A stretch of DNA of 64,000 bases. Source: a virus (Duplodnaviria > Heunggongvirae > Uroviricota > Caudoviricetes). The notes beneath the pieces were generated by a model. That model searched no databases and was not told where the DNA came from. It saw nothing but the letters and a program-made list of their open reading frames with translations. Location: IMG/VR virus record IMGVR_UViG_3300032116_012976. One strand, written 5' to 3'. Of the stretch, positions 1,700 through 18,700 are shown piece by piece. How positions within the stretch are numbered: position 1 is the first letter of the stretch; each line of letters starts with the position of its first letter. A program made the translations under genes and the position numbers.

Positions 1700-3017
1700 G
1701 TTCCGTCAGCAAGTATTAGACCCTCTCTCAGCCAGCTTTTGTGCGGCAAAATGGTATAACGCAACCATTTGGTTAGGAAGTGGACAGACCACAAGTTGTC
1801 ATCACCCGCCAGCTCATTTGATCGACAAAGATAAAGTCAGCATCAACCCTAGGCTACTGCACAATACTGATCAAAAGAAGGCAGATCGCCAACAAATGAT
1901 CAACGGGGAGCGTCCCCCTGGCTGTGAGTACTGTTGGAAAATAGAAGACATGGGTCGCAATGCCATTTCAGACCGTGTGTATAAGAGTAAGATATATCCC
2001 ATAGAGGCATTACATGAAGCTAGAAATACACCATACACTGAAGACGTCAACCTCCGTACACTTGAGATCGCTTTTGATCGCACTTGTCAGTTTGCTTGTA
2101 GCTATTGTAATCCAGCTTTCAGTTCAACATGGGTTAAAGACATCCGACGCAACGGAGCTTACCAGAACTTGGTCAGTGATGGTCGCAACCATTTTACCCA
2201 TGATCATGCTAACGCACAACTTTGGGATTATGGAGAACACAATCCTTACATTGATGCATTTTTTAAGTGGTGGGAGTCGGATCTGCATCGCACACTGCAA
2301 GAGCTCCGTATCACAGGAGGAGAGCCCCTCATGTCTGGTCACACATGGAAGCTCATTGACTGGTTTCGAACAAATTCAGGCAAGAGTTCAACACGCCTGG
2401 CTATCAACAGTAACCTAGGCACAGACGTAGACATTGACCGCTTGCTAGATGCAACGCAAAACATGGCAATTGACATATACACTTCAAACGAAGCTGTGGG
2501 TGTGCAAGCAGAGTACATACGCGACGGGTTGGTCTGGGCGGACTGGATGAACAATGTCAACCGCTTGTTAAGTTCCAAGCAGTTCCGTAGCATACATGTG
2601 ATGTGTACCATCAATGCCCTGTGCCTAGACAGCTTGGATCAATTGCTAGAGTGCATAGTGAAATGGAAGCTGGAGTATGGGCGTGATGCTATATCATTCA
2701 CACTAAACATCTTGCGTTTTCCCAGCTTTCAAAGTCCGTTGATACTGCCTGCGGAGTTGAAAACACACTACAAAACAGTGTTGGAAACTTGGCTCACAAA
2801 TCACAGCCACAGTGAATACCTGCACGAACACGAAATCAATCATTTACAAAGATTGATTGATTACCTGGATGTGGTGAAAACACCGCATTCAGACACATTT
2901 GAAATGCCCAAGCTATTGAATGATTTCAAACAATTCCACACACAGTATGACCAGCGTCGCAACAAAGACTTTGGCACAGCGTTCCCAAATCTGCAGGCCT
3001 GGTATAATTCACTATAA
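1686..3017 (+). CDS. radical SAM enzyme, paralog 2
   Basis: Radical SAM signature CQFACSYC (CxxxCxxC). An N-terminal Cys cluster is present (C..C...CxxC: PPGCEYCW). The start overlaps the stop of the upstream gene by 4 bp, which indicates translational coupling. Confidence 0.7.
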   Translation: MNDLEFRQQVLDPLSASFCAAKWYNATIWLGSGQTTSCHHPPAHLIDKDKVSINPRLLHNTDQKKADRQQMINGERPPGCEYCWKIEDMGRNAISDRVYKSKIYPIEALHEARNTPYTEDVNLRTLEIAFDRTCQFACSYCNPAFSSTWVKDIRRNGAYQNLVSDGRNHFTHDHANAQLWDYGEHNPYIDAFFKWWESDLHRTLQELRITGGEPLMSGHTWKLIDWFRTNSGKSSTRLAINSNLGTDVDIDRLLDATQNMAIDIYTSNEAVGVQAEYIRDGLVWADWMNNVNRLLSSKQFRSIHVMCTINALCLDSLDQLLECIVKWKLEYGRDAISFTLNILRFPSFQSPLILPAELKTHYKTVLETWLTNHSHSEYLHEHEINHLQRLIDYLDVVKTPHSDTFEMPKLLNDFKQFHTQYDQRRNKDFGTAFPNLQAWYNSL

Positions 3018-3026
3018 TTCACTATA

Positions 3027-4286
3027 ATGTCATATAATTACAACTCTACAGATCTAGTAAGACCCACAGAATTAACTGAGCGTGAGGAATTCTTACTAAA
3101 AGATTCAAAGACATTTTGCATTTATCCCTGGATCCATTTGCACGCCTATCCCACAGGCGAGGCATATCCCTGCTGTCATGCTGAAATGAAGCCAGGCATA
3201 GTAGGCAACTGTAGAACAAATACCTTAGAAGAAATATGGCAGGATGCACCCATGCAGAAGCTACGTGCAGACATGCTGAGCGAAACGCCACACGCTGCCT
3301 GCACACGTTGTTATGAGCAGGAAGAATCAGGATTCTTTTCAGGCCGTAAGAGTGCCAACAAACATCACGGACATCACATAAAGAAGCTGGATCAAAATCC
3401 TTTTGAAATGACCTACTGGGACATTCGTTTCTCAAACTTGTGCAATCTAAAATGCCGTAGCTGCGGATACATATTCAGCTCACAATGGTATCAGGATCAA
3501 GCCAAACTTGCTGGCGGCGACTGGAAAGCCCGCAACACAGTGCTAAACTATGCAGGGCGTACTGAAACTGACATGTGGGAACAATTAAAGCCTCATTTGG
3601 ACTATGTGGAACAGATCTACTTTGCTGGCGGTGAACCCTTGCTTATGGCGGAACACTACAATATTCTAGACGAGCTGGTGCGAAGAAAACGCTTTGACGT
3701 TAGACTCATATACAACACCAACTTCACACACACGGATCTCAAGGGTCGTTCAGTATTTGAATACTGGCGCCAGTTCGATTCAGTTGCTGTGGGTGCCAGC
3801 CTGGATGCGTCGGGCGCACGTGGGGAATACATTAGAAAAGGCACAGACTGGGCCGTAGTAGAACAGAACAGACGTGATATGTTGCGTGTGTGCCCTGAAG
3901 TGGATTTTTACATTTCACCTACCTTGAGCATAATGAATGCCTGGCACCTGCCTGATTTCCACCGTGACTGGGTGGAAAAAGGCCTGATCCGCGCACAGGA
4001 TTTAAATATAAATATCCTACAAGATCCTGCGCACTATAGAATAGACATTGCCACAGCCGAATACAAACACTCACTCACAGCACTGTATCAAAATCATATC
4101 CATTGGCTTAAAGGTCAGGACCCGCTAAATCGTGCCACACAAGGCTTTGAATCAGCCATTACCTTTATGATGGCCACAGACAACACACACTTGATAGATA
4201 CATTCTGGCGCAAAACAAATGAACTAGATTCAATAAGAAATGAATCAATATTGGATATAATTCCAGAATTGGCGGCACTAAAATGA
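3027..4286 (+). CDS. radical SAM enzyme, paralog 3
   Basis: Motif FSNLCNLKCRSCG (CxxxCxxC). N-terminal Cys cluster FCIYPW...YPCCHA...CTRCY. A GGEPL-like motif FAGGEPLLM. The C-terminal block GARGEYIRKGTDW. Confidence 0.7.
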   Translation: MSYNYNSTDLVRPTELTEREEFLLKDSKTFCIYPWIHLHAYPTGEAYPCCHAEMKPGIVGNCRTNTLEEIWQDAPMQKLRADMLSETPHAACTRCYEQEESGFFSGRKSANKHHGHHIKKLDQNPFEMTYWDIRFSNLCNLKCRSCGYIFSSQWYQDQAKLAGGDWKARNTVLNYAGRTETDMWEQLKPHLDYVEQIYFAGGEPLLMAEHYNILDELVRRKRFDVRLIYNTNFTHTDLKGRSVFEYWRQFDSVAVGASLDASGARGEYIRKGTDWAVVEQNRRDMLRVCPEVDFYISPTLSIMNAWHLPDFHRDWVEKGLIRAQDLNINILQDPAHYRIDIATAEYKHSLTALYQNHIHWLKGQDPLNRATQGFESAITFMMATDNTHLIDTFWRKTNELDSIRNESILDIIPELAALK

Positions 4287-5500
4287 ATATTCCACACGAT
4301 CAATTTTGCGTATTGCCCTGGGTGAGTTTAGAAGCCTCTCCCATTGGCACTGTACGCCCATGTTGTCTGGCAGATGATGAACTGACGGATGACTCTGGCA
4401 CAAAGTTCTCGCTATTGAATGCTAACTTTGCTGACATACAAAACTCACGTGCAATGACACGCCTGCGTGAACAGTTTCTTGCAGGCGAAAAGCCACAGAC
4501 CTGCCGCAAGTGCTGGATGGAAGAACGTGCTGGCCGCACATCAAAACGCATGCACACCTTGGACAGAATGAAACACATGGGCATATCAGGAGAATGGACC
4601 ACTGACGCCAAGCCGCTGATGTTCCTGGATTTGAAGCTGGGCAACATCTGCAATTTAAAATGTCGTATATGCGGATCATGGTCATCAAGCCAATTTGCCA
4701 CAGAAGAATTAAATGACATGCATCCAGATGACGATAAGAAAAAGACATTTCCCTATCAGATGCTGCGAGCAGGTGCGTGGCCCAGGGAAAATCAATCATT
4801 TTGGACAGAAATTGATGCCTGTTTAAATGACATACGCTACATTGAATTTACAGGTGGCGAGCCATTCATGATTGATCAGCACTTTGACATGTTGCAGGGC
4901 ATTGTGGATCGCGGAATTGCACATCAAGTGGAAATACACTACAACACAAATGGCACACAATGGCCTGCTCGCGGCCCGGACATCTGGCGCCATTTTAAAA
5001 CAGTAGAAGTGGCGTTCTCAATAGATGATGTGGGTGAACGCTTTGAATATCAACGCACCAATGCAGACTGGGCATTGGTGCTGGACACAATCACAAGTTT
5101 TCAATATCTTAGAGATCAACTGCCCAACCTGCGTTTACAATGCTGTAGTACCGTGAATGTGTTTAATGTGCGGTACATTGATCAACTAGCACACTGGATA
5201 GCACTGCAACGCTTTGACTTTGTGTACTGGAACATGATGCATGATGCCTGGTACTTTTCAATTGCCACACTGCCTGACACAGCCAAAGCTGCTGTCACAG
5301 AACACCTACGTTCAGCAGATGTGCCCGCACAATATCGTGAGGAGTTTGATAGAATCACAGACTTTATGAATGGGGGTGCGTCAACGGACGGCTTTATGTT
5401 GCGAATGAAAGTACGTGATTTAGATCGCAAAAGAAAACAAAATTTACGTGATGTAGCGCCAGAATTTGCTGAAATAATTGGGTATGACTATGACCAGTAA
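4283..5500 (+). CDS. radical SAM enzyme, paralog 4
   Basis: Motif GNICNLKCRICG. N-terminal Cys cluster CVLPW...RPCCL...CRKCW. Motif FTGGEPFM. Overlaps the neighbouring genes at both ends. Confidence 0.7.
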   Translation: MNIPHDQFCVLPWVSLEASPIGTVRPCCLADDELTDDSGTKFSLLNANFADIQNSRAMTRLREQFLAGEKPQTCRKCWMEERAGRTSKRMHTLDRMKHMGISGEWTTDAKPLMFLDLKLGNICNLKCRICGSWSSSQFATEELNDMHPDDDKKKTFPYQMLRAGAWPRENQSFWTEIDACLNDIRYIEFTGGEPFMIDQHFDMLQGIVDRGIAHQVEIHYNTNGTQWPARGPDIWRHFKTVEVAFSIDDVGERFEYQRTNADWALVLDTITSFQYLRDQLPNLRLQCCSTVNVFNVRYIDQLAHWIALQRFDFVYWNMMHDAWYFSIATLPDTAKAAVTEHLRSADVPAQYREEFDRITDFMNGGASTDGFMLRMKVRDLDRKRKQNLRDVAPEFAEIIGYDYDQ

Positions 5501-6497
5501 TCTGGTATTGATGCACGACACCAGACTGGTTCCTGCCAATTTGTCAAGGCATTTTCCTGTGGACTATGAGTTTTTTGATCCTGGCAAAACATATCCCAGC
5601 AACACAGTTTTTGTTTATGATCATTATCTCAGTGAAATTGCAGTCAAACAGCATCTTGACAGTCATCTGCAAGCTGGCTACAGAGTAATATACGACAACA
5701 AAAATGAACATTGGTTTACCACTGACCAATGGTGGATTGTTGAGCTGCTACAAAAATATCCACAACAACACCTTTTGTTTAGTTTGGGATCACAGCCTGG
5801 CGCATTGCCTGGACTCAGAGTGCAGGCTGTGCCTGCTTGGATATGGCTGCGTTGCCGAGACTATTGGGAAAAATTGAACTATCACAATATTGCATATACT
5901 CCAACTGCACGGTATAAAACATTGTGTATGATCAACTACACACGACCCTGGCGAGACCTGGTGTGGCAAGCATTGAATCCCATGGAGGCAGATGTGATGC
6001 GTAGTTATTTGTCCCAGGGGATCAGCATGCCCGACGATGTTACAGGTGATGGACACTTGTGGCAGGTAAATCCACGTTGGTTTCATATTTCTGCAATGAG
6101 CTTGGTGTGCGAAAGTTCAATTGGTGCTGTTTCTGGAGAAATTTCAGTCACTGCACCGTCAGGTGTGTTTGTGAGCGAAAAAAGTCTAAAGCCCATGGCC
6201 ATGCAACATCCATTTATTGTGGTAGCAACCCCGGGTACCCTAGCAGAGATACAGAGTTTTGGATTTGAAACATTCCCAGAGTTATGGGACGAAAGCTACG
6301 ATTCAATTGTGGACTTTGGTCAGCGATTAAACGTCATTATGCAACAAGTGCAACAGTTTGATACAGCACAATTAAACCAGCTGGTAGTGCAACAAAAACT
6401 CCAACACAATCAGCACAGGATTTTTGATCCTGCGGTAACACAGCAATTGCTACAGCAACAGGTGTTGGATCCCATATTAGAATTTTTAAATGAATAA
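5478..6497 (+). CDS. GT10-like (TEK-motif) glycosyltransferase paralog
   Basis: Block FVSEKSLKPMAMQHPFIVVATPG...FGFETFPELWDESYD. The start may be the ATG at 5484 or 5490. Confidence 0.4.
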   Translation: MGMTMTSNLVLMHDTRLVPANLSRHFPVDYEFFDPGKTYPSNTVFVYDHYLSEIAVKQHLDSHLQAGYRVIYDNKNEHWFTTDQWWIVELLQKYPQQHLLFSLGSQPGALPGLRVQAVPAWIWLRCRDYWEKLNYHNIAYTPTARYKTLCMINYTRPWRDLVWQALNPMEADVMRSYLSQGISMPDDVTGDGHLWQVNPRWFHISAMSLVCESSIGAVSGEISVTAPSGVFVSEKSLKPMAMQHPFIVVATPGTLAEIQSFGFETFPELWDESYDSIVDFGQRLNVIMQQVQQFDTAQLNQLVVQQKLQHNQHRIFDPAVTQQLLQQQVLDPILEFLNE

Positions 6498-7779
6498 ACC
6501 TGATACCATGTGCCTGGCACCTTGGGTGCATACCTATCTAAGCCCGCAAACTGAACGGCGCATGTGCTGTGCGTCACGCGAGCCTGCACAGAATTTTCGG
6601 CAGTACATAGACACTGAGTCAGGTACTGGTCAGTATATTCCTGTCACACTTGAAGAACATTGGAATTCAAATCACATGCGATCAGTGCGTCGCAGAATGA
6701 TGGCCGGAGAAACTTTACCTGAATGCGAAGTATGCAATGACCGACTCCTTAACACTAGCGTTTACCGCACCTACTTCGATCATTTATTTCAGCACAAACT
6801 GCCAGAAGTATACGCTAACACACAGCCCGATGGCACTACGACTATGGAACCTGTTTCATGGGATTATAGGTTCTCAAACTTATGTAACTTCAAATGCAGA
6901 ACCTGCGGAGATATGCTTTCAAGTGCCTGGGAGAGTGAACAAAAACAGAACAACATGGTCAACTGGGCTGATCCTAAAAACAATTGGATGCGAGACAGTA
7001 TACGTGACAGCATCTCCCAATTTCAGGATAGTCAAATTGAAGCCGAATTTGCTGCCGCCGTTGAACAACATCGTGTAGAAGAAATCTACTGGGTGGGCGG
7101 AGAGCCGCTAATGTACGAACAGCATTGGCGCCACATGAAAAGAATTGTTGAACTAGGAGATGGACCACGTGTTTATGCTAGATATAATACTAATCTCAGC
7201 CGTGTGCGTTACGGCGGTGTGGATCTATTTGATGATATCCTGGCGCACATTCGCGATTGGCAAATATGTGCTTCCCTGGATGGAACTGAGCAGATCGGGG
7301 AATATATTCGTACAGGATTGGATTATGCACAGTTCTGTCGTAATTTTGAACACGGACTCAAATACGCTACCAACCCTAGACAGATGCGTCTTGACTTTAC
7401 CCTCACACTGCCCGGCATGTTCGAGACTGGCGCAATGGAAAAGTTATCACAGACGTATGGGGTACAATTGTTAGCCAAAGTGATATTCAGCTTTAGTCCA
7501 GACATTGTTATGAGTCCACTTGCGCTGCCCAGACACTTGTTGGATCCATGGGTTGACGAACTAGCAGGCCGCTCCGCAGGTGACATGCGTGATGTACTGC
7601 TACAATTAAAGAACCGTCCATGCTTTGAGGAACAATGGCCGGATACATATCGCGCAGGACTTGCAAAAGGCAAAGCTCGTGTGTTACAATTAGAAAGCAT
7701 ACGCACACAGAAGATTACTATGGCAGAAATACTTGCTCAAAGACCAGCAGTGCTAGAATGGTGGAATAAAATTGCTTGA
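6490..7779 (+). CDS. radical SAM enzyme, paralog 5
   Basis: Motif FSNLCNFKCRTCG. N-terminal Cys cluster CLAPW...RMCCAS...CEVCN. Motif WVGGEPLM. Block GTEQIGEYIRTGLDY. Confidence 0.7.
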   Translation: MNKPDTMCLAPWVHTYLSPQTERRMCCASREPAQNFRQYIDTESGTGQYIPVTLEEHWNSNHMRSVRRRMMAGETLPECEVCNDRLLNTSVYRTYFDHLFQHKLPEVYANTQPDGTTTMEPVSWDYRFSNLCNFKCRTCGDMLSSAWESEQKQNNMVNWADPKNNWMRDSIRDSISQFQDSQIEAEFAAAVEQHRVEEIYWVGGEPLMYEQHWRHMKRIVELGDGPRVYARYNTNLSRVRYGGVDLFDDILAHIRDWQICASLDGTEQIGEYIRTGLDYAQFCRNFEHGLKYATNPRQMRLDFTLTLPGMFETGAMEKLSQTYGVQLLAKVIFSFSPDIVMSPLALPRHLLDPWVDELAGRSAGDMRDVLLQLKNRPCFEEQWPDTYRAGLAKGKARVLQLESIRTQKITMAEILAQRPAVLEWWNKIA

Positions 7780-8833
7780 TCACATTGAAATAGACCTACG
7801 CGGACAAAACAGCCTACTAACTGTGCATATAGATGTGGCGGACAACACACTAAGTCGCAAATGGCTAACCGCGCTAAATGACATCATTAGAACTGATCTT
7901 CATTTGGAAAAGAATTACTGTTGGATGGGATGGACTGAAAGTGAACGAAATGCACAATACCTTTGTGAGCAAATTAATGCTAGTATTGATCACATCAATC
8001 GAAGTGGTATTGGCTATTGTATTGATTGTGATGCTTATACTGTAGAGAATACCATTGAGCCAGGAATCATTGGCACCAATCTAATCATCGGTGGCGTGGT
8101 GCATGAAAAAATGAACAATCTACACAGGTATTTTGAAGACCTACAAGGGTGGTCAGGTGGCATTTCAAATTATTATACTCGTGCAGATCCTGCTACACGC
8201 TGGCACATACGTCAACTAAATCTCCTGTGTCATGAATATGAAAGTCTTGTATTGAGCATGCGCAAGGCTGTGCATGCCCCTGAATGGCGCAGACCCTCAC
8301 AGTTGATGTGTTGGCTTAATGCACCGCGTTTTGCACTAGAACCCGCGGACTATGAATTGTTTGGCGTAGAAACCATCAACAGAACTCTAGGCGGTGTTTA
8401 TTTGGGTGTAAATAAAGCAGTTGGCAAACATCACTGGGAGGTGTTCAATGATGAAGGTAGGGATTCGCGTGTTGGCGAGCTTGTTACTACAGGACTGCGT
8501 GCTCAAACTGAAGCCGCTGGCGACTTTGATATCGAATGGGCCCGTGACCCAGGAGCATATCACTGGCAAATCAAAAAGTTACAAGAATTCCGCGCCTGGC
8601 TATTGGACAATGGGTTTGATCCAGAGGACAAAAGTCTCACCATTGGTCACCCAAAGGTGGCACAAGTTGACGTGATGCGAACATTTGGAACAACGGATTA
8701 TGAAAAGATTTGGGCGCAGTTGGCTCAACATCTTGATGTGTTGAGCATACGTACCGGGTGGGGCGAAGCTACATACAACTATCGCTGGAGCGATCCAGAC
8801 TATCATGAACAGCAAATAAGGAGATTGAAATGA
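7772..8833 (+). CDS. hypothetical protein
   Basis: A 353-aa ORF coupled to the upstream radical SAM gene. No recognisable motif. Confidence 0.4.
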   Translation: MLDHIEIDLRGQNSLLTVHIDVADNTLSRKWLTALNDIIRTDLHLEKNYCWMGWTESERNAQYLCEQINASIDHINRSGIGYCIDCDAYTVENTIEPGIIGTNLIIGGVVHEKMNNLHRYFEDLQGWSGGISNYYTRADPATRWHIRQLNLLCHEYESLVLSMRKAVHAPEWRRPSQLMCWLNAPRFALEPADYELFGVETINRTLGGVYLGVNKAVGKHHWEVFNDEGRDSRVGELVTTGLRAQTEAAGDFDIEWARDPGAYHWQIKKLQEFRAWLLDNGFDPEDKSLTIGHPKVAQVDVMRTFGTTDYEKIWAQLAQHLDVLSIRTGWGEATYNYRWSDPDYHEQQIRRLK

Positions 8834-8927
8834 ATTGGATTAGACAAATTTGGGATAGAATTACACTAGAGTATCGTTATCGTAAAAAACTAAAAGAGCT
8901 ACGCAAAAGAGATCCTTTTATCTACAA

Positions 8928-9575
8928 ATGAAAAATCAGTTACTCACAATAGGTGATAGCTTTACACATGGTGACGAATTGTCAGATGTGTATCAAGCCT
9001 GGCCCTATCGTCTGTCAGACAAACTAGGATACGAAGTCCACAATCTTGGACAGTCAGGGTGCAGTAACGCTAGTATTTTGCGTAGAACATTAGAAGAACT
9101 TGCGACCAATCATTATGATTTAGTTATTATAGGGTGGACTTATCCGGGTAGAATTGAATGGAAAGATGACATTGGCATAGCGTATGATTTATGGCCAGGT
9201 GTGCCCAACGATACTAAATTTTTTAAAGATCATCCTTGGAGAGTTGATTTTTTAAACTTTATAAGTCAACATCACAATTCTGCTTATCTATACCAACAGT
9301 ATCTGATACAAACAATTTTGTTGCAATCGTTTTGCCAAGTCAACAGCATTGATTATAGAATGTTAGATGTACAATGGCACAATTACTACAGAAAAGTTGG
9401 ATCAGAAATGCATGATAAGTTAGAAGCAAAAATAGATACAACAAAATTTATAGGTTGGCAAAAGTTTGGTATGAGAGAACTAGTGGCTGATTTACCAAAA
9501 GGTCCTCAAAATCATCCGCTAGAACAAGGACATGAGAGAATAGCAAATGAAATCGCAAAACATATTGGGAATTAG
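8928..9575 (+). CDS. SGNH/GDSL-family hydrolase
   Basis: N-terminal GDSL block LLTIGDSFTHGDEL, with a downstream G and a GHER motif. Confidence 0.5.
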   Translation: MKNQLLTIGDSFTHGDELSDVYQAWPYRLSDKLGYEVHNLGQSGCSNASILRRTLEELATNHYDLVIIGWTYPGRIEWKDDIGIAYDLWPGVPNDTKFFKDHPWRVDFLNFISQHHNSAYLYQQYLIQTILLQSFCQVNSIDYRMLDVQWHNYYRKVGSEMHDKLEAKIDTTKFIGWQKFGMRELVADLPKGPQNHPLEQGHERIANEIAKHIGN

Positions 9576-11037
9576 TGCAGGCTTTCATGACGCTGCCTTG
9601 ACCTTGTTAGACCAGCACGGCAAGATTGTGTTTGCCGGCCATTCAGAACGTTACAGCAAGCAAAAAAATGATGCTGATATTTCATCAGCCATGCTTGACG
9701 AAATTGACATGAGTCAGGTAGGTACCATTGCGTACTACGAACGTCCGTGGATGAAACAACTGCGTCAATGGTATGCAGGACAGGGTATTGAGTGGAACAA
9801 AGTAACCACAAGACAAATACTAGAGCAACAGCTTGGCGCTGACCAAGTCAATGGCAAACGCATTAAAAACTACAATCATCATTTGTGTCATGCTGCTGCT
9901 GGTTTTCAAACAAGCCCTTATCCCATAGCCACAGTGGTTGTGATAGATGCTGTGGGCGAATGGGACACAGTGTCAATCTGGGGAGCAATGTATGATAAAA
10001 ATCTTAAAGCAACGTATACTCGACTTTGGTCGCAGAGTTATCCACATTCAATTGGATTATTCTACAGTGCTATTACTAAGCGCATTGGCCTACACCCACT
10101 AGACGAAGAATACATCACCATGGGCATGGCCGGATGGGGAACACCTCGATGGACCGAAGTCATGCGTGATGTACTCGTGGACAATCCAGAACAACTGCGG
10201 TTTAGATCAAACTTACACACAGGACTTGATTCAAGTTTTTTAGATTGTGCAACCAATGAAGATATTGCTGCTTCGGCACAACAACTCACAGAGTATCTAA
10301 TACACCAAGTTATGACCAAGGCCAAAAACTTTGGGTGGAGTGACAACTTGGTTTACATGGGCGGAGTGGCGCTAAACTGTTTGGCCAATAGGAGGTTAGG
10401 TGAATACTTTGATAACATATGGATTATGCCTTGTCCTGGTGATGCTGGCAGTAGCCTGGGCGCCGCCGCTCTTGCACACGGCGGTTGTGTTCAGTGGACT
10501 AGTGCTAGTCTTGGCCATAATATACCTGGTGATTACCCTGTTTACAATGCCATGGCTGCTCTTCTCACTGATCGTATTGTGGGTGTGGCATCGGGCCGAG
10601 CAGAATTCGGACCCAGAGCCCTAGGCAATAGATCATTGCTAGCAGACCCCCGTGGCGCTGACATAAAAGACCAAGTGAATTCGATCAAACGCAGACAAAA
10701 ATTTAGACCTTTTGCCCCAGTTATTCTGGAGGAGTTGGCTGACGATTACTTTGATATGCCTCGTTGCTGGAGTGACAGTAGGTATATGCAAATTGTCGCT
10801 CGTTGCCGGCATCCTGACTTATTTCCCGCTGTTATTCATGTTGACGGCACTAGTCGTGTACAGACTGTGCCCCGCGACGGATCAGGCATAAGAAAGCTGT
10901 TGGAAGCATGGTACGCCGAGACAGGTTGCCCTATGTTGCTTAATACAAGTTTAAACATACGTGGGGAGCCAATGGTAAACGACAGAGCAGACGCAGACCG
11001 ATTTGAAACACTGTATGGTGTAAAGGTATGTTCATGA
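9547..11037 (+). CDS. carbamoyltransferase (NodU/CmcH family)
   Basis: The N-terminus ILGISAGFHDAALTLLDQHGKIVFAGHSERYSKQKND is typical of NodU/CmcH/HypF-like carbamoyltransferases. Length 496 aa. Confidence 0.7.
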   Translation: MKSQNILGISAGFHDAALTLLDQHGKIVFAGHSERYSKQKNDADISSAMLDEIDMSQVGTIAYYERPWMKQLRQWYAGQGIEWNKVTTRQILEQQLGADQVNGKRIKNYNHHLCHAAAGFQTSPYPIATVVVIDAVGEWDTVSIWGAMYDKNLKATYTRLWSQSYPHSIGLFYSAITKRIGLHPLDEEYITMGMAGWGTPRWTEVMRDVLVDNPEQLRFRSNLHTGLDSSFLDCATNEDIAASAQQLTEYLIHQVMTKAKNFGWSDNLVYMGGVALNCLANRRLGEYFDNIWIMPCPGDAGSSLGAAALAHGGCVQWTSASLGHNIPGDYPVYNAMAALLTDRIVGVASGRAEFGPRALGNRSLLADPRGADIKDQVNSIKRRQKFRPFAPVILEELADDYFDMPRCWSDSRYMQIVARCRHPDLFPAVIHVDGTSRVQTVPRDGSGIRKLLEAWYAETGCPMLLNTSLNIRGEPMVNDRADADRFETLYGVKVCS

Positions 11038-11720
11038 TTATAATTATGGGCGATAGTTGGGGCGTGGGAGAATGGGGATCGGATAAAGATCGCAGTTGTT
11101 GTTTAACGGGTCCGGGAATAGGTCAATTGTTTTCTTTGCATGGCAAAGTAATAAATTTTAGTCAGGGCGGTGCTAATAATTTTGAACAACAACAGGAGTT
11201 TGAACGGTTGTTGGCAAAATTCAAACCAGATGACAATGATCAATTTTATTGGATAGTTACAGATCCTTTAAGAAATGTTGTACCTAGCACGTTACTAGAA
11301 ACTGCTTCAAGTATTGAATCTGCCGCACAAGAACTGTTAAATTTGTTTTTTAAAAATATTAATTTCATTGCAACTAGTCGCAATATAACCATTAGGTTAA
11401 TTGGAGGGCTCTGTGATCTTGAACCTATATCTTACAGCCATTTAAAAGTGGTTGTTCCAAGTTGGTGCAAAATGCTTAATGCAACTCATACATCATCAAT
11501 TTTTGTAGATGACACAATTAAAGAGCTTGCACCATATATTGCAGCGCATAGGCCTGATTTAAAACATGAATGGACAGAAATAGCCAAAACTGCATTGGAC
11601 AAAAGAAAAAGTGTTAAGTACTTAGAATCTTGTGGGCTAATAGTGGCAGACCATCCTTCAAGACAAGCGCACAGATTACTAAGAGATTATTTGTCACCGG
11701 GCAACGAAAATGTTTTTTAA
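11028..11720 (+). CDS. GDSL-like hydrolase (second copy, divergent)
   Basis: N-terminal block IIIMGDSWGVGEWG. It is flanked by a duplicated gene-end junction (see findings). Confidence 0.4.
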   Translation: MFMIIIMGDSWGVGEWGSDKDRSCCLTGPGIGQLFSLHGKVINFSQGGANNFEQQQEFERLLAKFKPDDNDQFYWIVTDPLRNVVPSTLLETASSIESAAQELLNLFFKNINFIATSRNITIRLIGGLCDLEPISYSHLKVVVPSWCKMLNATHTSSIFVDDTIKELAPYIAAHRPDLKHEWTEIAKTALDKRKSVKYLESCGLIVADHPSRQAHRLLRDYLSPGNENVF

Positions 11721-11777
11721 AAACATTGGTGTTAATATAATGCTAATTCAATCAGTTGATTCTTGTGGGAGTTTGAC

Positions 11778-11864
11778 CTTGCACATACGTGGTGAGCCCA
11801 TGGTCAACGATAGAGCAGATGCAGATAGATTTGAACGTGAGTATGGTGTCAAGGTCTGTTCATG
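11778..11864 (+). repeat. 87-nt degenerate duplication (~79% identity) of the carbamoyltransferase 3' end (10951-11037)
   Basis: An ungapped alignment of the two 87-mers. Both end in gttcATGa, which overlaps the start of the next gene. Confidence 0.6.
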
Positions 11865-12407
11865 AATGTGCATGCAATTCATTTGCCCAATCAGGCTCGA
11901 TGTTTTTTAATTGACAGCTTTTTCCCACAAAGTCATCTAGCCAGCATACATGAAATATGTGAGGCTTTCAGCAAAGAGTCTGTGGCCTGGCAGCATCCTG
12001 AGTGGACCACGTATCGTTACATATATCAAAACTGCTCACCTGAATGGCAGTCAGTTGTGGACTATCTAAAAGTTCCCAACCCAGAACTCACTCAAGCACT
12101 GGGCTATGCTGTGACATGTGATGAAGTGTTGTTATGGGCAGAGTTTCAAGGCATTGGAATATTGCAACCGCATGTTGAAATACCCGGCGGTAAAAATCTC
12201 AGTCAGTTGTATATTACCAAACAGCCAGTGCCCAATAACGGCACTACCATCTATACCGATCAAAAAGAAATATTATGCTTGTTGCCGTATCGTGACAACT
12301 TTGGATGGTTCTTTGATGACAGTGGTCGAGTCATGCATGGGCGTGACAATGACGTACCACCAGACATCATACGTTTTACCATGATGATGCACTGGTCTAA
12401 AGTGTAA
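11862..12407 (+). CDS. hypothetical protein
   Basis: A 181-aa ORF. Its ATG overlaps the duplicated TCATGA junction sequence. Confidence 0.4.
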   Translation: MNVHAIHLPNQARCFLIDSFFPQSHLASIHEICEAFSKESVAWQHPEWTTYRYIYQNCSPEWQSVVDYLKVPNPELTQALGYAVTCDEVLLWAEFQGIGILQPHVEIPGGKNLSQLYITKQPVPNNGTTIYTDQKEILCLLPYRDNFGWFFDDSGRVMHGRDNDVPPDIIRFTMMMHWSKV

Positions 12408-13448
12408 TTACAGATAAGTTTCTAAACCGCCACGACGGCGGATATCCTGTGTGCAACAAGATATACCGCCGTCCCAGAAGTAGCTGTGACGCAACTCACA
12501 TATAATGGGTTCAATCCCATGCTTCCTACAGTAATCAAAAACTTCTTTGTTGTACGCACTAAAGATCACGTGCGATTCATCTAACACAAGACAGTTGACA
12601 TCAAACACAGTTTCGGCCACAAAGCCAGTCCATTTGGTCAGATAAGTGTTCACAAAGTCTGTGAACTCAGGTGTGGGTGTTTGGCCTTGCACATACCATG
12701 CGCCAGGTGATTGTTCGTACTTGAACTTGCCCACTTCCATAGCGGCCCAGATTGAACTGTCCCAGATCTTACATACGTCCCAGCCAGGAAAGTCTTTGGC
12801 TAGATCCAAGTTAACATCGTGCTTGCTGGACAGTAACACACCGGGTTTGAGAATAGCAAACACAGCATCACCGTGTCCATCTGTAACAGCTTCGTGTATG
12901 CGATACTCTGGACCTAGGCAATTGTCCACAATCCAACGAGTTTGATCAGGACGCAAAAAGTCTGAGTTGTCAAAGAACACATCACGCCCCACACGCACAA
13001 TACAACTTGCACTTGCACCATTTAGTATGCAATCTGGATCCCAGGCGCTTTTGTGTGGGTTAATGACTGCATCTCCGTAGCCTCGGCAAACGTTATCCAG
13101 TTCAGGCATGGCCAACACACGCAACAATTTGCCGCCCAAGGTGATTTGCCAGTCGCGTGGTGTGAGTGGCGGCAGCGGAGCACCTCCTCCTTCAGTTTGG
13201 AACCATACAAATTGATCTTTTGCAGGTAGATCTGGACGACGAACTTGAGCTCCAAACTGCTCAATGGTCTTGGACAAGTTAGCAAGATCTTCTTCAGTTT
13301 CATGGAGAATCTGTTGCAGTTGATTGCGCACTTGTGGATTGTCTATGAAATCAAAGTAGTCAGGCGAGTAAGCACGACCCACAATTACTTCTTCAAGTGG
13401 TTGCCAGCTGGTGTAGGAGTTAACGATATTGCTCATGTATTTTCTCAA
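12408..13448 (-). CDS. amidinotransferase-superfamily-like protein (tentative)
   Basis: The C-terminal motif HSYFWDGGISCCTQD resembles the catalytic Cys region (GG.x.C.T) of arginine deiminase / amidinotransferase / StrB1-type enzymes. Length 346 aa. Confidence 0.35.
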   Translation of the reverse strand: MRKYMSNIVNSYTSWQPLEEVIVGRAYSPDYFDFIDNPQVRNQLQQILHETEEDLANLSKTIEQFGAQVRRPDLPAKDQFVWFQTEGGGAPLPPLTPRDWQITLGGKLLRVLAMPELDNVCRGYGDAVINPHKSAWDPDCILNGASASCIVRVGRDVFFDNSDFLRPDQTRWIVDNCLGPEYRIHEAVTDGHGDAVFAILKPGVLLSSKHDVNLDLAKDFPGWDVCKIWDSSIWAAMEVGKFKYEQSPGAWYVQGQTPTPEFTDFVNTYLTKWTGFVAETVFDVNCLVLDESHVIFSAYNKEVFDYCRKHGIEPIICELRHSYFWDGGISCCTQDIRRRGGLETYL

Positions 13449-14610
13449 TCAAGCTATTTAAACGCTTGCTCTTGTTGGCAACAAATAATTGCTGGTTGTG
13501 TTCTATGTCTGCTCTGGCAGCTTCGAACAACTGCGGTAACCTGGGTTGAGCGGCTGCTATGCTGTCACGCAAGCTCTCCCAACGCTGTGTGTGGTTTGCA
13601 ATTTTATCGTAACTGTTATCCAGTATGCCATCAAACACACGATAGCCCAGATCACGCAACACTTGCAAACTACCAGCACCACCGCCCACAAAAAACAACT
13701 GCCCGTGTTTGATAGGTTTGAATGTTTTTTCTGTAACAAATGCACCATTTGACTGATCCACATCAAATTGACTTTCCAACACTATGTTACAGTATGCGTT
13801 TGCAAAATATTTTGGTTCCATTACAGAATGATTGTTGCGATCGCTATCACTTAGTTCATCGCTGATGTAAGGTGCCTGATCCAGGAACCGTTTGCGATCA
13901 TAACGCAGCTGACTGATCATATCTACTTCTATTGGGCAGTCGGTATCTTCACCGTAAGGTTCTTCACAATAACTCCAATAACTGTTGCTCAGTATACCAG
14001 AGCGATGCAGGTCTGCCATGGCAGTGGCCCGCCACCATTTGTGCAGTCTGCTCAAACAAGTAAAATCTCGTTCTCGTGGCAAGTTGTGAATTTCTAAAGG
14101 CGCACTGTTGATGTTGCGCTGATAATACCACAGTTCAAAGTCGTGAAATGTAACAAAGCCGGGCAACTGGTCTGCGGATGTATTACTGCTGACAAATATA
14201 TAACAGTCTGGTGGCAACAGGTGTTGTTCGGCTAATGCGTCCAGTCTGTTTTTGATTCGTCTAGGACTGTCACCTTCGTGGTACATGAACAACACACGTA
14301 ACTCACTGCGGTGCAGTTTTTTTCTTACAGCAACTGTCATTAATTCAAAGTAGTCAATGTCAAAGTCAAAGAATCCCAAGCAAACAGGATAGTATGTGTT
14401 GGCTGGCAAGCTGTGGTCGATGTTGTGAACTGTTAAATCAATACCATGTTGACCACAGTATTCTTGTATTCGCACAGGAGTAGTGTATGGCCAGTGCTCG
14501 CCAAACTGTCTCCAGCCGGGAGTGTAAGGTCTAGCTTCGTGCCGTGCCAGGGCAGGATATATTTTACCTTTGATGGTTTGATCAGCAACAAGATTAAGTT
14601 TGTAATTCAT
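13420..14610 (-). CDS. GT10-like (TEK-motif) glycosyltransferase paralog
   Basis: Block VLESQFDVDQSNGAFVTEKTFKPIKHGQLFFVGG...LGYRVFDGILDNSYD. Confidence 0.4.
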   Translation of the reverse strand: MNYKLNLVADQTIKGKIYPALARHEARPYTPGWRQFGEHWPYTTPVRIQEYCGQHGIDLTVHNIDHSLPANTYYPVCLGFFDFDIDYFELMTVAVRKKLHRSELRVLFMYHEGDSPRRIKNRLDALAEQHLLPPDCYIFVSSNTSADQLPGFVTFHDFELWYYQRNINSAPLEIHNLPRERDFTCLSRLHKWWRATAMADLHRSGILSNSYWSYCEEPYGEDTDCPIEVDMISQLRYDRKRFLDQAPYISDELSDSDRNNHSVMEPKYFANAYCNIVLESQFDVDQSNGAFVTEKTFKPIKHGQLFFVGGGAGSLQVLRDLGYRVFDGILDNSYDKIANHTQRWESLRDSIAAAQPRLPQLFEAARADIEHNQQLFVANKSKRLNSLIEKIHEQYR

Positions 14611-15790
14611 ACAACATGTTTTGTAGTTCAGGCCAAAGTATGCTAGTCAATCCGCCTTGGTAAAAATGATGAAAGTTGTGTTCTACTAAGGGCACACATG
14701 CACGATGAATTTGCTCACGTTCTTTCAACGACAAACTGTCAAGGTCCTTGAGTAATTTTACTACCTTTTCCACACGCAGTTGATCATCGGTTTCTTGGTC
14801 GTAACTTTCGTCAAACACAGAATCAAATGTTTTGAAACCATAACTGCGCATGTATTCCAAACTGCCAGCAGGCGCCATCAACACAAACGGCATTTCTAAT
14901 GCAATGGCCTTGAATGTTTTTTCAGTAATGTGCAATCGACGTCCAAAATAAACTGTTTCAGTTGGCACATACACAAGAGAATCCTGCGCTTCTGTAAAAT
15001 TGGTAAGCCAACAGCTGGCCATCTGTTGAGTTTCTTCGCCAGCAAACAGTCTAGGCAATTCAGCAGTTCGAAACACTTGCTCAATGTCTGGATATATGTT
15101 ATTATACTTCTTAGCAATGTCAACAATGTCAACATTTTCATACACACAGACTCGTGGAGCTGAAATGTGATTGTGTTCCAATTGCTGTTTGAACACATGA
15201 TACAAAAACAACACTCGATGATCACGTTTGCCAGCAACAATCCGATTGGGACTCATGAACGTTTTGGTAGGAGCACGATCACGTGCTCTAGGAATCAAAA
15301 AAGACTTATCGTATCCACGAAACCAATCTTGACAGGCCCATCCATGATAAAAATAGTAATGACTTTTCCAGCCATATATATCACACAACTGTTCAACTTG
15401 TTCTCCATGCTCGCTAACAATAACATGTCCTTGTGATGTTTTTATTTGTTTGTTTTTAATAATGTTTGCTAAATTTAGATCAGTATAATTTGCAATTAAA
15501 AAATCAGCCATGTTAATGTAGTTGCTGTCAGGATCGTTAAGTCTGTACACAACATCAGCCATGCGATCTAACACTTCGTTAAACAATCCTCCATGTGCAT
15601 CTAAATGAACTGGTTCTTGATCATGAAAAAATATATAATCTTCTTCCTCGATGCCATCATACCCAAAATTCAACAATGCGTTGGGGCTGGTATCACCAGG
15701 TGGATCACAAAAGAACATGCGTGTGCCAGGAACATTTTGCTTGATCCAAGGCCAAAATGTATTGTTGTAAATTTCGTCTATTCTAATCAT
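14594..15790 (-). CDS. GT10-like (TEK-motif) glycosyltransferase paralog
   Basis: Block ITEKTFKAIALEMPFVLMAPAG...YGFKTFDSVFDESYDQ. Confidence 0.4.
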   Translation of the reverse strand: MIRIDEIYNNTFWPWIKQNVPGTRMFFCDPPGDTSPNALLNFGYDGIEEEDYIFFHDQEPVHLDAHGGLFNEVLDRMADVVYRLNDPDSNYINMADFLIANYTDLNLANIIKNKQIKTSQGHVIVSEHGEQVEQLCDIYGWKSHYYFYHGWACQDWFRGYDKSFLIPRARDRAPTKTFMSPNRIVAGKRDHRVLFLYHVFKQQLEHNHISAPRVCVYENVDIVDIAKKYNNIYPDIEQVFRTAELPRLFAGEETQQMASCWLTNFTEAQDSLVYVPTETVYFGRRLHITEKTFKAIALEMPFVLMAPAGSLEYMRSYGFKTFDSVFDESYDQETDDQLRVEKVVKLLKDLDSLSLKEREQIHRACVPLVEHNFHHFYQGGLTSILWPELQNMLYELQT

Positions 15791-18700
15791 GTTTGATGTT
15801 TTTTATTCGGGGAAAAAACCCAATGTTGTGGTGGGAGTACAAGAAGCTGAATCGATTGATCATGCACGTCAGTTGAGTCGCACACGATATTTTTGGTGGA
15901 TACACTACTTAGCAGATCTCGAGCACTGGGATTTTTCTTGGGAGCCTGTACCGTGGCAAAGTCACCAACGCCACGCCTGGGCCAACCAACATCAACCTGA
16001 CGCTGGCATATATCTTGTGCCTGCAAACTGGGATGGGCAAGAAACCAATTATCACTCTGCTCCTGCAATACATCACGGGGTTGATGCAAACTACTGGCAC
16101 ATTCCCGGCTGGATTGATGCTACCAGCATAGATCCACAATGGAGTCCAGACCCAATGGATCCACCTTATATCTACGAGTTTCCTGTGGAGTGGGGATGGG
16201 ATAGAATTGGTGGGCCACAGTATCGAGTTCCTGGTGCTAGTGAAATCAAATACGTCAACGCTTTTGTAACAAAAACTCAGCACAATCCATTGCCTTGGTT
16301 TCAGCATTGTGAGTTTAACTGGACTGACGAAGCCTATCGTTGGCGCCCATGTCCCGAAGATCCTCCTTACATCTATGTGTTTGGTAATCAATGGTATCCA
16401 GCTGAAGTCATGCCTACTGTGGAATATCGAGTTCCTGGCGCCACAGAACGCAAATACATGGATCTGCGTGTGCAGTTACCAGAACGTCACACTAACCACT
16501 GGCACACTTTGCATGATTGCGAATGGGATTATTCATGGGTGCCAGACCCAGGAGATCCACCTTATATCTATGTTTTTGGCAATCAACATTGGCCTGCTGA
16601 AAAAATGCCCACAGTGGAATATCATGTGCCAGGCGCTACCGAGCGCAAGTACATGCACATGACTGCAAGATTACTCAGTGACAAAACCAATTGGACCATA
16701 CACGAATACATCAAACGATGGGACTATTCATGGGTGCCGGATCCAGGAGACCCACCATACATCTACATATGGGGCAATCAACATTGGCCCGGCGAGATCA
16801 TGCCCACCTTAACATATACAATGCCTGGTGCAACAGATATCAAATACGTAGATGGACCACAACCTGAGTTGGGCAGTTGCATGGGCAATTGGGAATGGTG
16901 CGAAGATATCAACGACAGTGAGTGGGATTGGACGTGGGTACCCAACCCCAAGGACCCTCCCTATATCTATGTGTTTGGCAATCAATGGAATCCGCCAGAA
17001 TTAAAAGCCAGTATCAAGTATCATGTAGATGGTGCTACAGAAGTCAAGTATATGGATCGACGCACCACAAGATTGCCGCAGCCTGATCTTTTTACTAATG
17101 TTCTTCCAGTGACGCAGTTTGATTACTCTTGGGAACCTGATCCCACAGATCCGCCAATGACCTATGTGTTTGGTAGTCAGTGGAATCCTGGTGTGCTAGA
17201 ACCCGCTGTAACATACAGCACTGGAGGCACAGAAATCAAGTATGTAGACAACATAATTGCTCAAGTGGCACCAAACCCTGAGTCCTGGACACTGCTGGAC
17301 GATGTGATAGAGTTTGACTACAGTTGGAGACCAAATCCCACAGATCCCCCTTACATTTATGTGTTTGGTAATCAATGGCTAAGTGCAGAAGTCCGACCTG
17401 CACTAGAGTATCATGTGCCAGGTGCTACAGAACGCAAGTACATGGATCATCCACGGGCTCAACGTCGTGGCAACCCAGAGTTATTTGTGAAGTTACATCC
17501 TTGTGCGTTTGATTGGTCGTGGGAACCAGAACCAGGATCGCCTCCTTACAAGTATGTGTTTGGTAATCAATGGCACGCCGCAGAAATCATGCCCACAGTT
17601 GAATACAACATGCCAGGTGCTACTGAACTCAAGTATATGGACGAGCCAAAAGCTAAACTACCCGAAAACCCCAATCGACCTTGGTACAATGTAGTTGAGA
17701 GCGACATGGATTATTCATGGGTACCGGATCCCGGAGATCCTCCATATATCTATGTGTTTGGCAATCAATGGCACTCAGCTGAAATCATGCCCACAGTAGA
17801 ATATCGCATGCCCGGCGCTACAGAACGCAAGTACGTGGATATATCCGCACAATTGCTACCTGACTTGACACACTGGCACATACCTGATCATGTTGATGTC
17901 ACGGACATGGACTTCTCTTGGGTACCTGATCCAGGTGAGCCGCCCTACATCTATCAGTTTGCCACACAGCACCAAAAAACAGGCGGCCCGCAATATCGGG
18001 TGCCATGTGCTAGTGAAGTCAAGTATGTGGATATGATGCGAGCCGAAGTCAAACGTGAGGCTGTGCCTATTTTTGAAATTGATCACATGGACGGCAATGC
18101 TGGTCAGATCCCTAACGTGGTCAAAAAGATTCGATATTTTGACAACTATAGAGACACTCTAATACGTCTGGCCAAGAGTCTAGTGGGCGAATACGAGCAT
18201 GTGTGGGTGTGTAGCAGTATATGCGATTACACTGACTTTGATTTTTCATGGCATCCAGAAACATGGCAAAGCACCATGCTCCATGTGTTCCCTAGCAACA
18301 AACAAAAGTTTGGGGACACATTCTACATGCATGTGCCTACCTTTGCTGAACGAGCAGAAAAGAAACAGTTGTTAGAATGGTATTCGGTAAACTATGTGTC
18401 ACGACGGGCAGTGCCACGCAGACCTATGCCTGTGATTGTGCATGATGGCGACAGTCAAGTTGATGCTGTAAAGTCACAAGACTTTGTGGGTCCATTGGCC
18501 ATGTTTACCAATCATGACTATGTGCCTAGCGACCTTGTTACAGTGCCCTTGTGGCGGCAAGAAACCAAGACTATTGTGCCTGTAAGTTCAGGCGCTGGCA
18601 GTGTAGTTGTGCCTAAAGTGGCTGTGCCCTTTATCAAGACACAGTTGTATGACTATCCGCACATAGACAAAACACAACGAATGTTGAAAGACAAGCCATT

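Follow-up and report, generated by a model that had tools for sequence, protein, structure and literature searches.

A 64,000-nt (64 kb) stretch of a Caudoviricetes genome (IMG/VR record IMGVR_UViG_3300032116_012976; hereafter the window) carries the 3′ end of a carbamoyltransferase gene (CT) twice, once at the end of the intact gene and once on the far side of an accessory gene, GDSL2. Our analysis indicates that the second copy is very probably a recombination scar, that is, the displaced tail of a CT gene after two versions of a variable slot, termed P1 and P2, were joined illegitimately. The features of such a scar are present: a truncated gene with an intact homologue, a novel joint with 6 shared nt, and unrearranged parental layouts in relatives. 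An earlier note on this DNA had taken the duplicated gene end for the footprint of the gain of GDSL2, and in this it was right. The case illustrates, in good resolution, the familiar mosaicism of phages and involves no new mechanism or kind of element.

A repeat search of the window returned a direct repeat, 83 nt long and ungapped, between 10955–11037 (copy A) and 11783–11865 (copy B), with 69 of the 83 positions identical (83%). The probability of at least 69 matches in 83 is 3e-28, or about 7e-19 when corrected for all pairs in the window, which excludes chance and confirms an identity above background. A degenerate 26-nt motif derived from the repeat has exactly two sites in the 64 kb and none in 100 shuffles. 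The earlier note had placed the recurring gene end at 11778–11864, with an identity of about 79%; the recurrence stands, and pairwise alignment shifts the interval to 11779–11865 and the identity to 71/87 (82%). Homology to CT truly begins at 11783. The preceding TTGC belongs to another, g12408r-derived fragment, which is why an Asn-to-His change appears at the left edge. Copy B comprises only the last 83 nt of CT, without its start and body, and the sequence upstream of it is unrelated to CT. As had been read from it before, it encodes the remnant LHIRGEPMVNDRADADRFEREYGVKVCS followed by a stop codon. TCATGA closes both copies; its ATG is the start codon of the accessory gene g11862 (at 11862) after copy B, as previously described, and likewise that of GDSL2 (at 11034) after copy A.

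The window was compared with a first set of 80 related loci (L001–L080), to which further loci up to L119 were added; the P1- and P2-type parents were recovered through exact-protein look-ups, and 65 CT genes were aligned using MAFFT with fast settings. The 80 loci have a common frame, consisting of tandem radical S-adenosylmethionine (SAM)-like paralogues, g7772, CT, a variable slot and then, on the opposite strand, g12408r, g13420r and g14594r. The slot between CT and g12408r measures 3 to 4631 nt across relatives, and neither a second CT end nor a GDSL2 homologue (E ≤ 1e-3) was found in any of the 80 loci. In the P1-type layout, GDSL2 alone lies between CT and the oppositely oriented g12408r, and the CT stop codon overlaps the GDSL2 start. 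Its members are L098–L101 (GDSL2 88% and CT 88–90% identical to the window), L102–L105 (GDSL2 82%) and L118/L119 (GDSL2 84%), the last two with a 79-nt spacer between GDSL2 and g12408r. In the P2-type layout, g11862 lies between CT and g12408r, and the CT stop codon overlaps the g11862 start. This layout is found in L106 and L110–L117 (g11862 93–97% identical at the DNA level) and in the more distant L092–L097 (68–73% amino acid identity).

The window is a P2-type genome into which a P1-derived unit has entered, 83 nt short of the CT end, whereby the resident CT end was displaced and became copy B. Its CT body (9600–10560) is 95–100% identical to L110/L112, whereas identity over the last 130 nt is 54–78%. 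Whole-region alignment with L112 yields only two window-specific segments, an insert containing a further accessory gene, GDSL1 (8934–9576), and one unit of 828 nt. The aligner puts this unit at 10966–11793, equivalent to 10955–11782 (or 11038–11865). Compared with its close relatives, the window has GDSL2 as an insert, as had been proposed, since CT directly abuts g11862 in L106 and L110–L117 and the window has this one extra unit relative to L112; the inserted interval, however, is not 11028–11720 but about 10955–11782, or its equivalent. The unit comprises a P1-like CT end, GDSL2, 36 nt of P1 intergenic DNA, 7 nt, and a 25-nt antisense fragment of g12408r (Table 1).

The last of these pieces shows how the joint is built. 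The 25-nt fragment is identical at 23 of 25 positions to the resident g12408r (12672–12696), with both differences synonymous, and at 24 of 25 to L056/L066. It matches the same g12408r position, 264 nt from the 3′ end of that gene, in 65 loci. The chance expectation of the match is about 4e-5. The stretch 11726–11763 could at first not be placed (887 of 2000 shuffles scored as high against g12408r, and nothing matched in 105 loci); L118/L119 then resolved 11721–11756. At the joint, a g12408r piece is followed by a CT end, which is permuted with respect to the normal order of CT and then g12408r, and this permutation reads as the signature of unequal, duplicative exchange. The earlier note had proposed recombination at the conserved gene end; the right-hand junction is instead illegitimate, in that the g12408r piece is fused to CT through 6 nt.

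The two copies also differ in descent. Copy B matches the CT ends of other genomes at 53–73 of 87 positions and copy A at 71 of 87. Copy A thus stands no nearer to copy B than do the CT ends of other lineages, so the copies derive from different CT lineages. Over its first 62 nt, copy B shows 89% identity to P2-type CT ends and 77% to copy A. Copy B and the intact CT ends of L106 and L110–L117 share the signature EREY, and copy A and the P1-type CT ends of L098–L105 share ETLY. Among all relatives, the last 28 residues of the CT protein scarcely vary. Copies A and B differ in 13 codons, 10 of them synonymously; the non-synonymous differences are the Asn-to-His change at the left edge and TL to RE at two family-variable positions. 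In the tract 11841–11859 of copy B, 8 of 10 diagnostic sites have the base of copy A, and no other locus comes within three mismatches of that 25-mer, which points to a short gene conversion from copy A or to an unsampled donor.

Table 1. Features at and around the repeated carbamoyltransferase gene end, in window coordinates.
Feature	Position	Strand	Remarks
CT, Nol-like carbamoyltransferase, 496 aa	9547..11037	+	Intact; body P2-backbone-like, last ~100–130 nt P1-like
Repeat copy A	10955..11037	+	Functional 3′ end of CT; stop overlaps GDSL2 start (ATGA)
GDSL2, gained accessory gene, 228 aa	11034..11720	+	SGNH/GDSL-hydrolase-like fold
P1-type intergenic remainder, natively 3′ of GDSL2	11721..11756	+	32/36 identical to L118/L119, contiguous with the GDSL2 alignment
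TGATTCT, 7 nt	11757..11763	.	Putative internal deletion or switch junction; no source found in the loci searched
g12408r-family fragment, 25 nt	11764..11788	-	Codons YVQGQTPT, antisense as in the native orientation
ACATAC microhomology, 6 nt	11783..11788	+	Overlap of g12408r fragment and CT remnant in a three-way display (resident g12408r, junction, CT); illegitimate junction
Repeat copy B	11783..11865	+	Displaced last 83 nt of a P2-lineage CT; stop overlaps g11862 start
g11862, accessory gene, 181 aa	11862..12407	+	Directly 3′ of CT in P2-type genomes
g12408r, resident	12408..13448	-	Conserved right-hand anchor of the slot; in nearly all related loci, 64–93% amino acid identity; PHROG 25854 (unknown function)

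These observations bear on an alternative in which a cassette was inserted in situ at the boundary between CT and g11862, by element-encoded, site-specific or conserved-gene-end recombination, and a resident 83–87 nt was duplicated as the target and then diverged. Direct repeats do flank the gained gene, TCATGA does stand at the end of both copies, and the 3′ region of CT is the best-conserved DNA of the gene (mean pairwise identity 0.80 at 10921–11007 versus 0.67 overall), although this conservation reflects constraint on the protein and not a special linker. An insertion of this kind is nonetheless highly improbable. Copy B is no nearer to copy A than it is to the CT ends of other genomes, and a predominance of synonymous differences is unexpected for a decaying non-coding copy; on both counts, the in-situ duplication of a single sequence suggested in the earlier note fails. 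The P1 intergenic DNA and the g12408r fragment at the right end of the unit are explained only by an origin from a CT–GDSL2–g12408r arrangement. The unit encodes no transposase or integrase, its only open reading frame (ORF) being the SGNH-like gene; none of the 25 longest of 42 inverted-repeat pairs links its two ends; and the repeat occurs only twice in the 64 kb. Nor does the unit resemble a transposon, an insertion sequence or an integron cassette, given that there is no short identical target duplication and that the repeats are 83 nt long, 83% identical and of different lineages.

That an assembler joined co-occurring P1 and P2 strains at their common CT end is scarcely credible. Both parental types are indeed found in the same kinds of samples, and the window probably comes from a metagenome. 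However, the junction rests on 6 common bases, far below the k-mers used by assemblers, and a mis-join would create neither the 25-nt g12408r fragment nor the deleted spacer. The same structure is present in six independent assemblies (JGI and ENA samples), and the identical g11862 protein in 67 indexed assembly blocks. A diverged second lineage has the same junction in three more assemblies (JGI, ENA and Logan). The assemblies, from at least nine samples in all, come from different pipelines.

The arrangement may have arisen during a mixed infection, in which an unequal, microhomology-mediated event would have joined the interior of a P1 g12408r to a P2 CT, 83 nt before its stop codon. The joining at ACATAC could have proceeded by break-join between the co-infecting genomes or by replicative template switching. 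The P1 spacer would have lost its remaining part, and g12408r 264 nt, together about 307 nt, through either a later deletion or another template switch during that event; the latter is in keeping with a piece as short as 25 nt lying between two breakpoints. The left side would have been resolved through homologous exchange within CT near 10920–10954. The product would have kept both accessory genes behind their native upstream gene ends, including the ATGA overlaps, which plausibly preserved translational coupling. The remnant would have no carbamoyltransferase function and would afterwards provide passive homology, and exchange with P2-type genomes would either have brought the insert into at least two backbones or have renewed its flanks in them.

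The second lineage, L107–L109, provides a view of this later phase. It has the same spacer, fragment and junction as the window, with 1 difference in 62 nt, and a copy A that is identical from 10954 onward. Its CT body is 93% identical to that of L115 and 85% to that of the window, and its g11862 is 96–99% identical to that of L115. The remnant is only 79.5% identical to that of the window (17 differences in 83 nt, 2 amino acid changes), whereas the flanks are 93–98% identical. In L107 the remnant (1275–1361) is a mosaic, its first ~30 nt resembling P1-type CT ends (L098/L102) and its last 53 nt being those of the intact L106/L115 ends. The same junction on two backbones with different remnants implies that homologous exchange continued after the junction had formed. 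The block common to L107 and the window has its limits at 10954 and 11789, which are the same CT coordinate on both sides; such bounds would be expected of pairing with a P2 genome while the 828-nt unit is looped out. The left homology arm was probably the CT body, and the right one the remnant together with g11862. Such exchange would explain why the remnant looks undecayed and why the differences between remnants are synonymous.

A further strain, L089, equals the window from ~10399 to 17407 and is 9–28% diverged leftward of this (radical-SAM genes, g7772, GDSL1 and the first half of CT), which marks a homologous recombination breakpoint inside CT near 10398. Together with the other exchange, this breakpoint indicates that exchange in the island is frequent. 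The modular gene exchange that the earlier note envisaged for the island is borne out by the variability of the slot and by the apparent later exchange through the CT-body and remnant–g11862 arms, although not by the mechanism that it put forward.

Several points weigh against the scar reading. The exact donor genomes are unsampled, the GDSL2 genes of the best P1 relatives being only 82–88% identical to that of the window. Positions 10920–10954 match all sampled lineages poorly, and the 7 nt at 11757–11763 are without explanation. The 3′ 25 nt of copy B in the window fit neither parent exactly, with 2 of 10 diagnostic sites matching nothing sampled. One event and two events are not distinguishable from the sequence, and the role of the homology arms rests on two lineages only.

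Exchange of this sort also bears on whether copy B has a function of its own, either as a translated 41–51-aa protein that contains the C-terminal 28 residues of CT or as an initiation or coupling element selected for the expression of g11862. A chimeric ORF does run through the remnant, 51 aa in length (11710–11865) or 41 aa from an ATG at 11740, and was annotated in one of six gene callings; the non-coding context claimed for copy B holds with this qualification. The ORF is open as far as the TGA that overlaps the g11862 ATG in both scar lineages (in L107 without the ATG at 11710), and no disabling change is seen at family-invariant residues. Furthermore, the 17 nt differences between the two remnants change only 2 residues, and g11862 starts at an ATGA overlap in every P2 genome. 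We nevertheless consider such a function unlikely, and the data can be accounted for without it. Import from functional CT genes explains the synonymous pattern equally well, and the end of the L107 remnant (corresponding to window 11813–11865) equals intact CT ends. The adjoining non-coding 62 nt are 98% conserved, compared with 79.5% for the remnant, indicating exchange and not constraint. The 24 stop-free codons upstream are not unusual (p ~0.3 by a rough estimate), and the ORF has no family match. No promoter or terminator signal exceeded chance: a scan of 10800–12600 returned 6 promoter-like sites compared with 4.8 expected and 1 terminator-like site compared with 1.4, none of them in the repeat. 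In addition, the 28-residue tail of a 496-aa enzyme would be unlikely to fold alone. Six near-identical strain contigs contain no single-nucleotide polymorphisms in 10900–12000 and hence offer no test of constraint. For annotation, the scar reading implies that short, well-preserved 'ORFs' beside accessory genes can be displaced gene ends. Apparent purifying selection on such ends can be inherited or refreshed from intact genes elsewhere and need not mean that they have a function of their own.

Novel joints of this kind have precedents. In the Hendrix/Hatfull model, developed for lambdoid phages and mycobacteriophages, rare illegitimate joints and the gene remnants that they leave are filtered by selection. 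The window has in common with such mosaic joints a novel joint of unrelated sequences, a microhomology of a few bases, truncated pieces, intact flanking genes, to which such a joint owes its survival, and parental layouts in relatives. Unlike for the usual mosaic joint, sampling here covers the two parents as well as the composite and a second derived lineage, and the joint falls within genes instead of between them, in permuted order (g12408r and then CT). Rearrangements of the microhomology-mediated break-induced replication (MMBIR) and fork stalling and template switching (FoSTeS) type involve microhomology-mediated template switching with short templated insertions. The two close breakpoints enclosing 25 nt copied from a nearby gene, the 6-nt microhomology and the duplicative outcome resemble these, although the sequence alone cannot separate them here from break-join followed by a later deletion. 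What the window offers is a base-level view of the way in which a large phage of the virulent type extends a hypervariable island for sugar or surface modification by an accessory gene while keeping the resident gene. The route would be one microhomology-mediated unequal exchange between co-circulating variants, followed by homologous exchange that spreads the arrangement.

For the homologous phase, phage recombinases are known to carry out homeologous (relaxed) recombination, as described for lambda Red (PMC2327257) and Rad52-like proteins (PMC3945230). Consistent with recombination between sequences that are ~10–22% diverged, blocks of 99–100% identity alternate with blocks of 76–93% in CT, GDSL2, the remnant and g11862. 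In comparison with those systems, the process is read here from the pattern of sequence blocks alone.

In T4-type phages, promoter early stem-loop (PeSL) cassettes are associated with modular shuffling and mini-circles in hyperplastic regions (PMC2839356, PMC4122927). As with PeSLs, short repeats in the window stand on either side of non-essential genes, within a variable region of a large phage genome of the virulent type; being direct, they could excise a gene as a circle and allow its re-insertion at another place. GDSL2 might be a self-propagating cassette, in which recombination between copies A and B would free an 828-nt circle or linear form, and Campbell-style integration into conserved CT ends would regenerate the duplication. 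If true, this would make it a coding-sequence analogue of the PeSL mini-circles and would explain why one unit, bounded at 10954 and 11789, is found on two backbones. We regard this as improbable. When a single-crossover mini-circle (Campbell) model was compared by hand with the L107 copies, it needed extra events, because the first 30 nt of the left copy should be those of the recipient yet equal copy A of the window. PeSLs themselves combine an intergenic promoter with a terminator and occur in many copies per genome, whereas the repeat in the window is the coding end of an enzyme gene, in two copies that would stem from one illegitimate event. Only those two copies were found in the 64 kb, and only one CT end per locus in the 80 related loci.

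The window is akin to contigs, up to 374 kb long, from uncultured jumbo phages of fresh water. Its nearest isolate is the Ralstonia jumbo phage RsoM2USA (45% amino acid identity in CT). When the region was compared at the DNA level with 50,697 phage records, the sole match was a 68-nt stretch of CT in phage C48C1, that is, no close isolate. The junction, sought with exact and degenerate patterns among IMG/VR and JGI metagenome contigs, gave no match; the source samples are evidently not part of those collections and were reached through the exact-protein index. An IMG/VR protein-pattern scan for g11862 gave no match either.

The CT product matches Pfam Carbam_trans_N at 132.6 bits (cut-off 24, E 3e-38), Carbam_trans_C at 165.6 bits (cut-off 27, E 1e-48) and PHROG 1601 (E 2e-90), and its domains place it among NodU/CmcH-type carbamoyltransferases. 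GDSL2 and g11862 have no Pfam, PHROG or PDB sequence match. For GDSL2, the AlphaFold2 model has a predicted local distance difference test (pLDDT) score of 96.3 and a predicted template-modelling (pTM) score of 0.92. Its top ~30 Foldseek matches in the PDB are all SGNH/GDSL esterases, at weak scores (E 1e-3 to 1e-2, TM 0.3–0.5). Among 54 GDSL2 homologues, G6, S8, N41 and H207 are invariant and D7 and N49 nearly so; the Asp adjoins the His, and the usual DxxH spacing is not seen. The predicted model makes 'GDSL-like' a reasonable description at the level of the fold. GDSL2 has no significant sequence similarity to GDSL1. An A/T palindrome, ATGTTTTTTAAAAACAT, at 11710–11726 spans the GDSL2 stop codon and is partly conserved in the P1-type loci L098 and L118.

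The G+C content of GDSL2 is 0.33–0.38, compared with 0.43–0.51 in its flanks. Similarly, both SGNH-like accessory genes (8900–9500 and 11000–11750) have values of 0.32–0.40 versus 0.43–0.51 in the flanking conserved genes, which is consistent with histories separate from that of the island core. GDSL1 (8928–9575) is the further insert relative to the P2-type backbones L110/L112. The 9-nt sequence CAAATGAAA, which holds an ATGA stop/start overlap, occurs at both of its ends (8924–8932 and 9543–9551) and singly in L110. The first ~8 codons of CT differ between the two (MKSQNILGIS versus MKHTLGVS), implying that this CT 5′ end came in with the GDSL1 insert. Between g7772 and the next gene lies a 33-aa ORF, MNWIRQIWDRITLEYRYRKKLKELRKRDPFIYK (8830–8931), with ATGA-type overlaps on both sides; it is 100% identical at the protein level in L110 and was called in all strain contigs.

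Several tandem radical-SAM/SPASM-like paralogues occupy ~1700–7779 of the window, upstream of g7772, and g13420r and g14594r are two paralogous ~396-aa genes at 13420–15790. The recurrence of this pattern in nearly all of the first 80 loci suggests a modification pathway that is itself conserved while its accessory slots vary. Another filling of the slot is found in L095–L097 (594–1716), in which a tandem pair of g11862 paralogues, with 73% and 28% identity to the gene of the window, precedes a DUF6071-like (GDSL1-type) gene.

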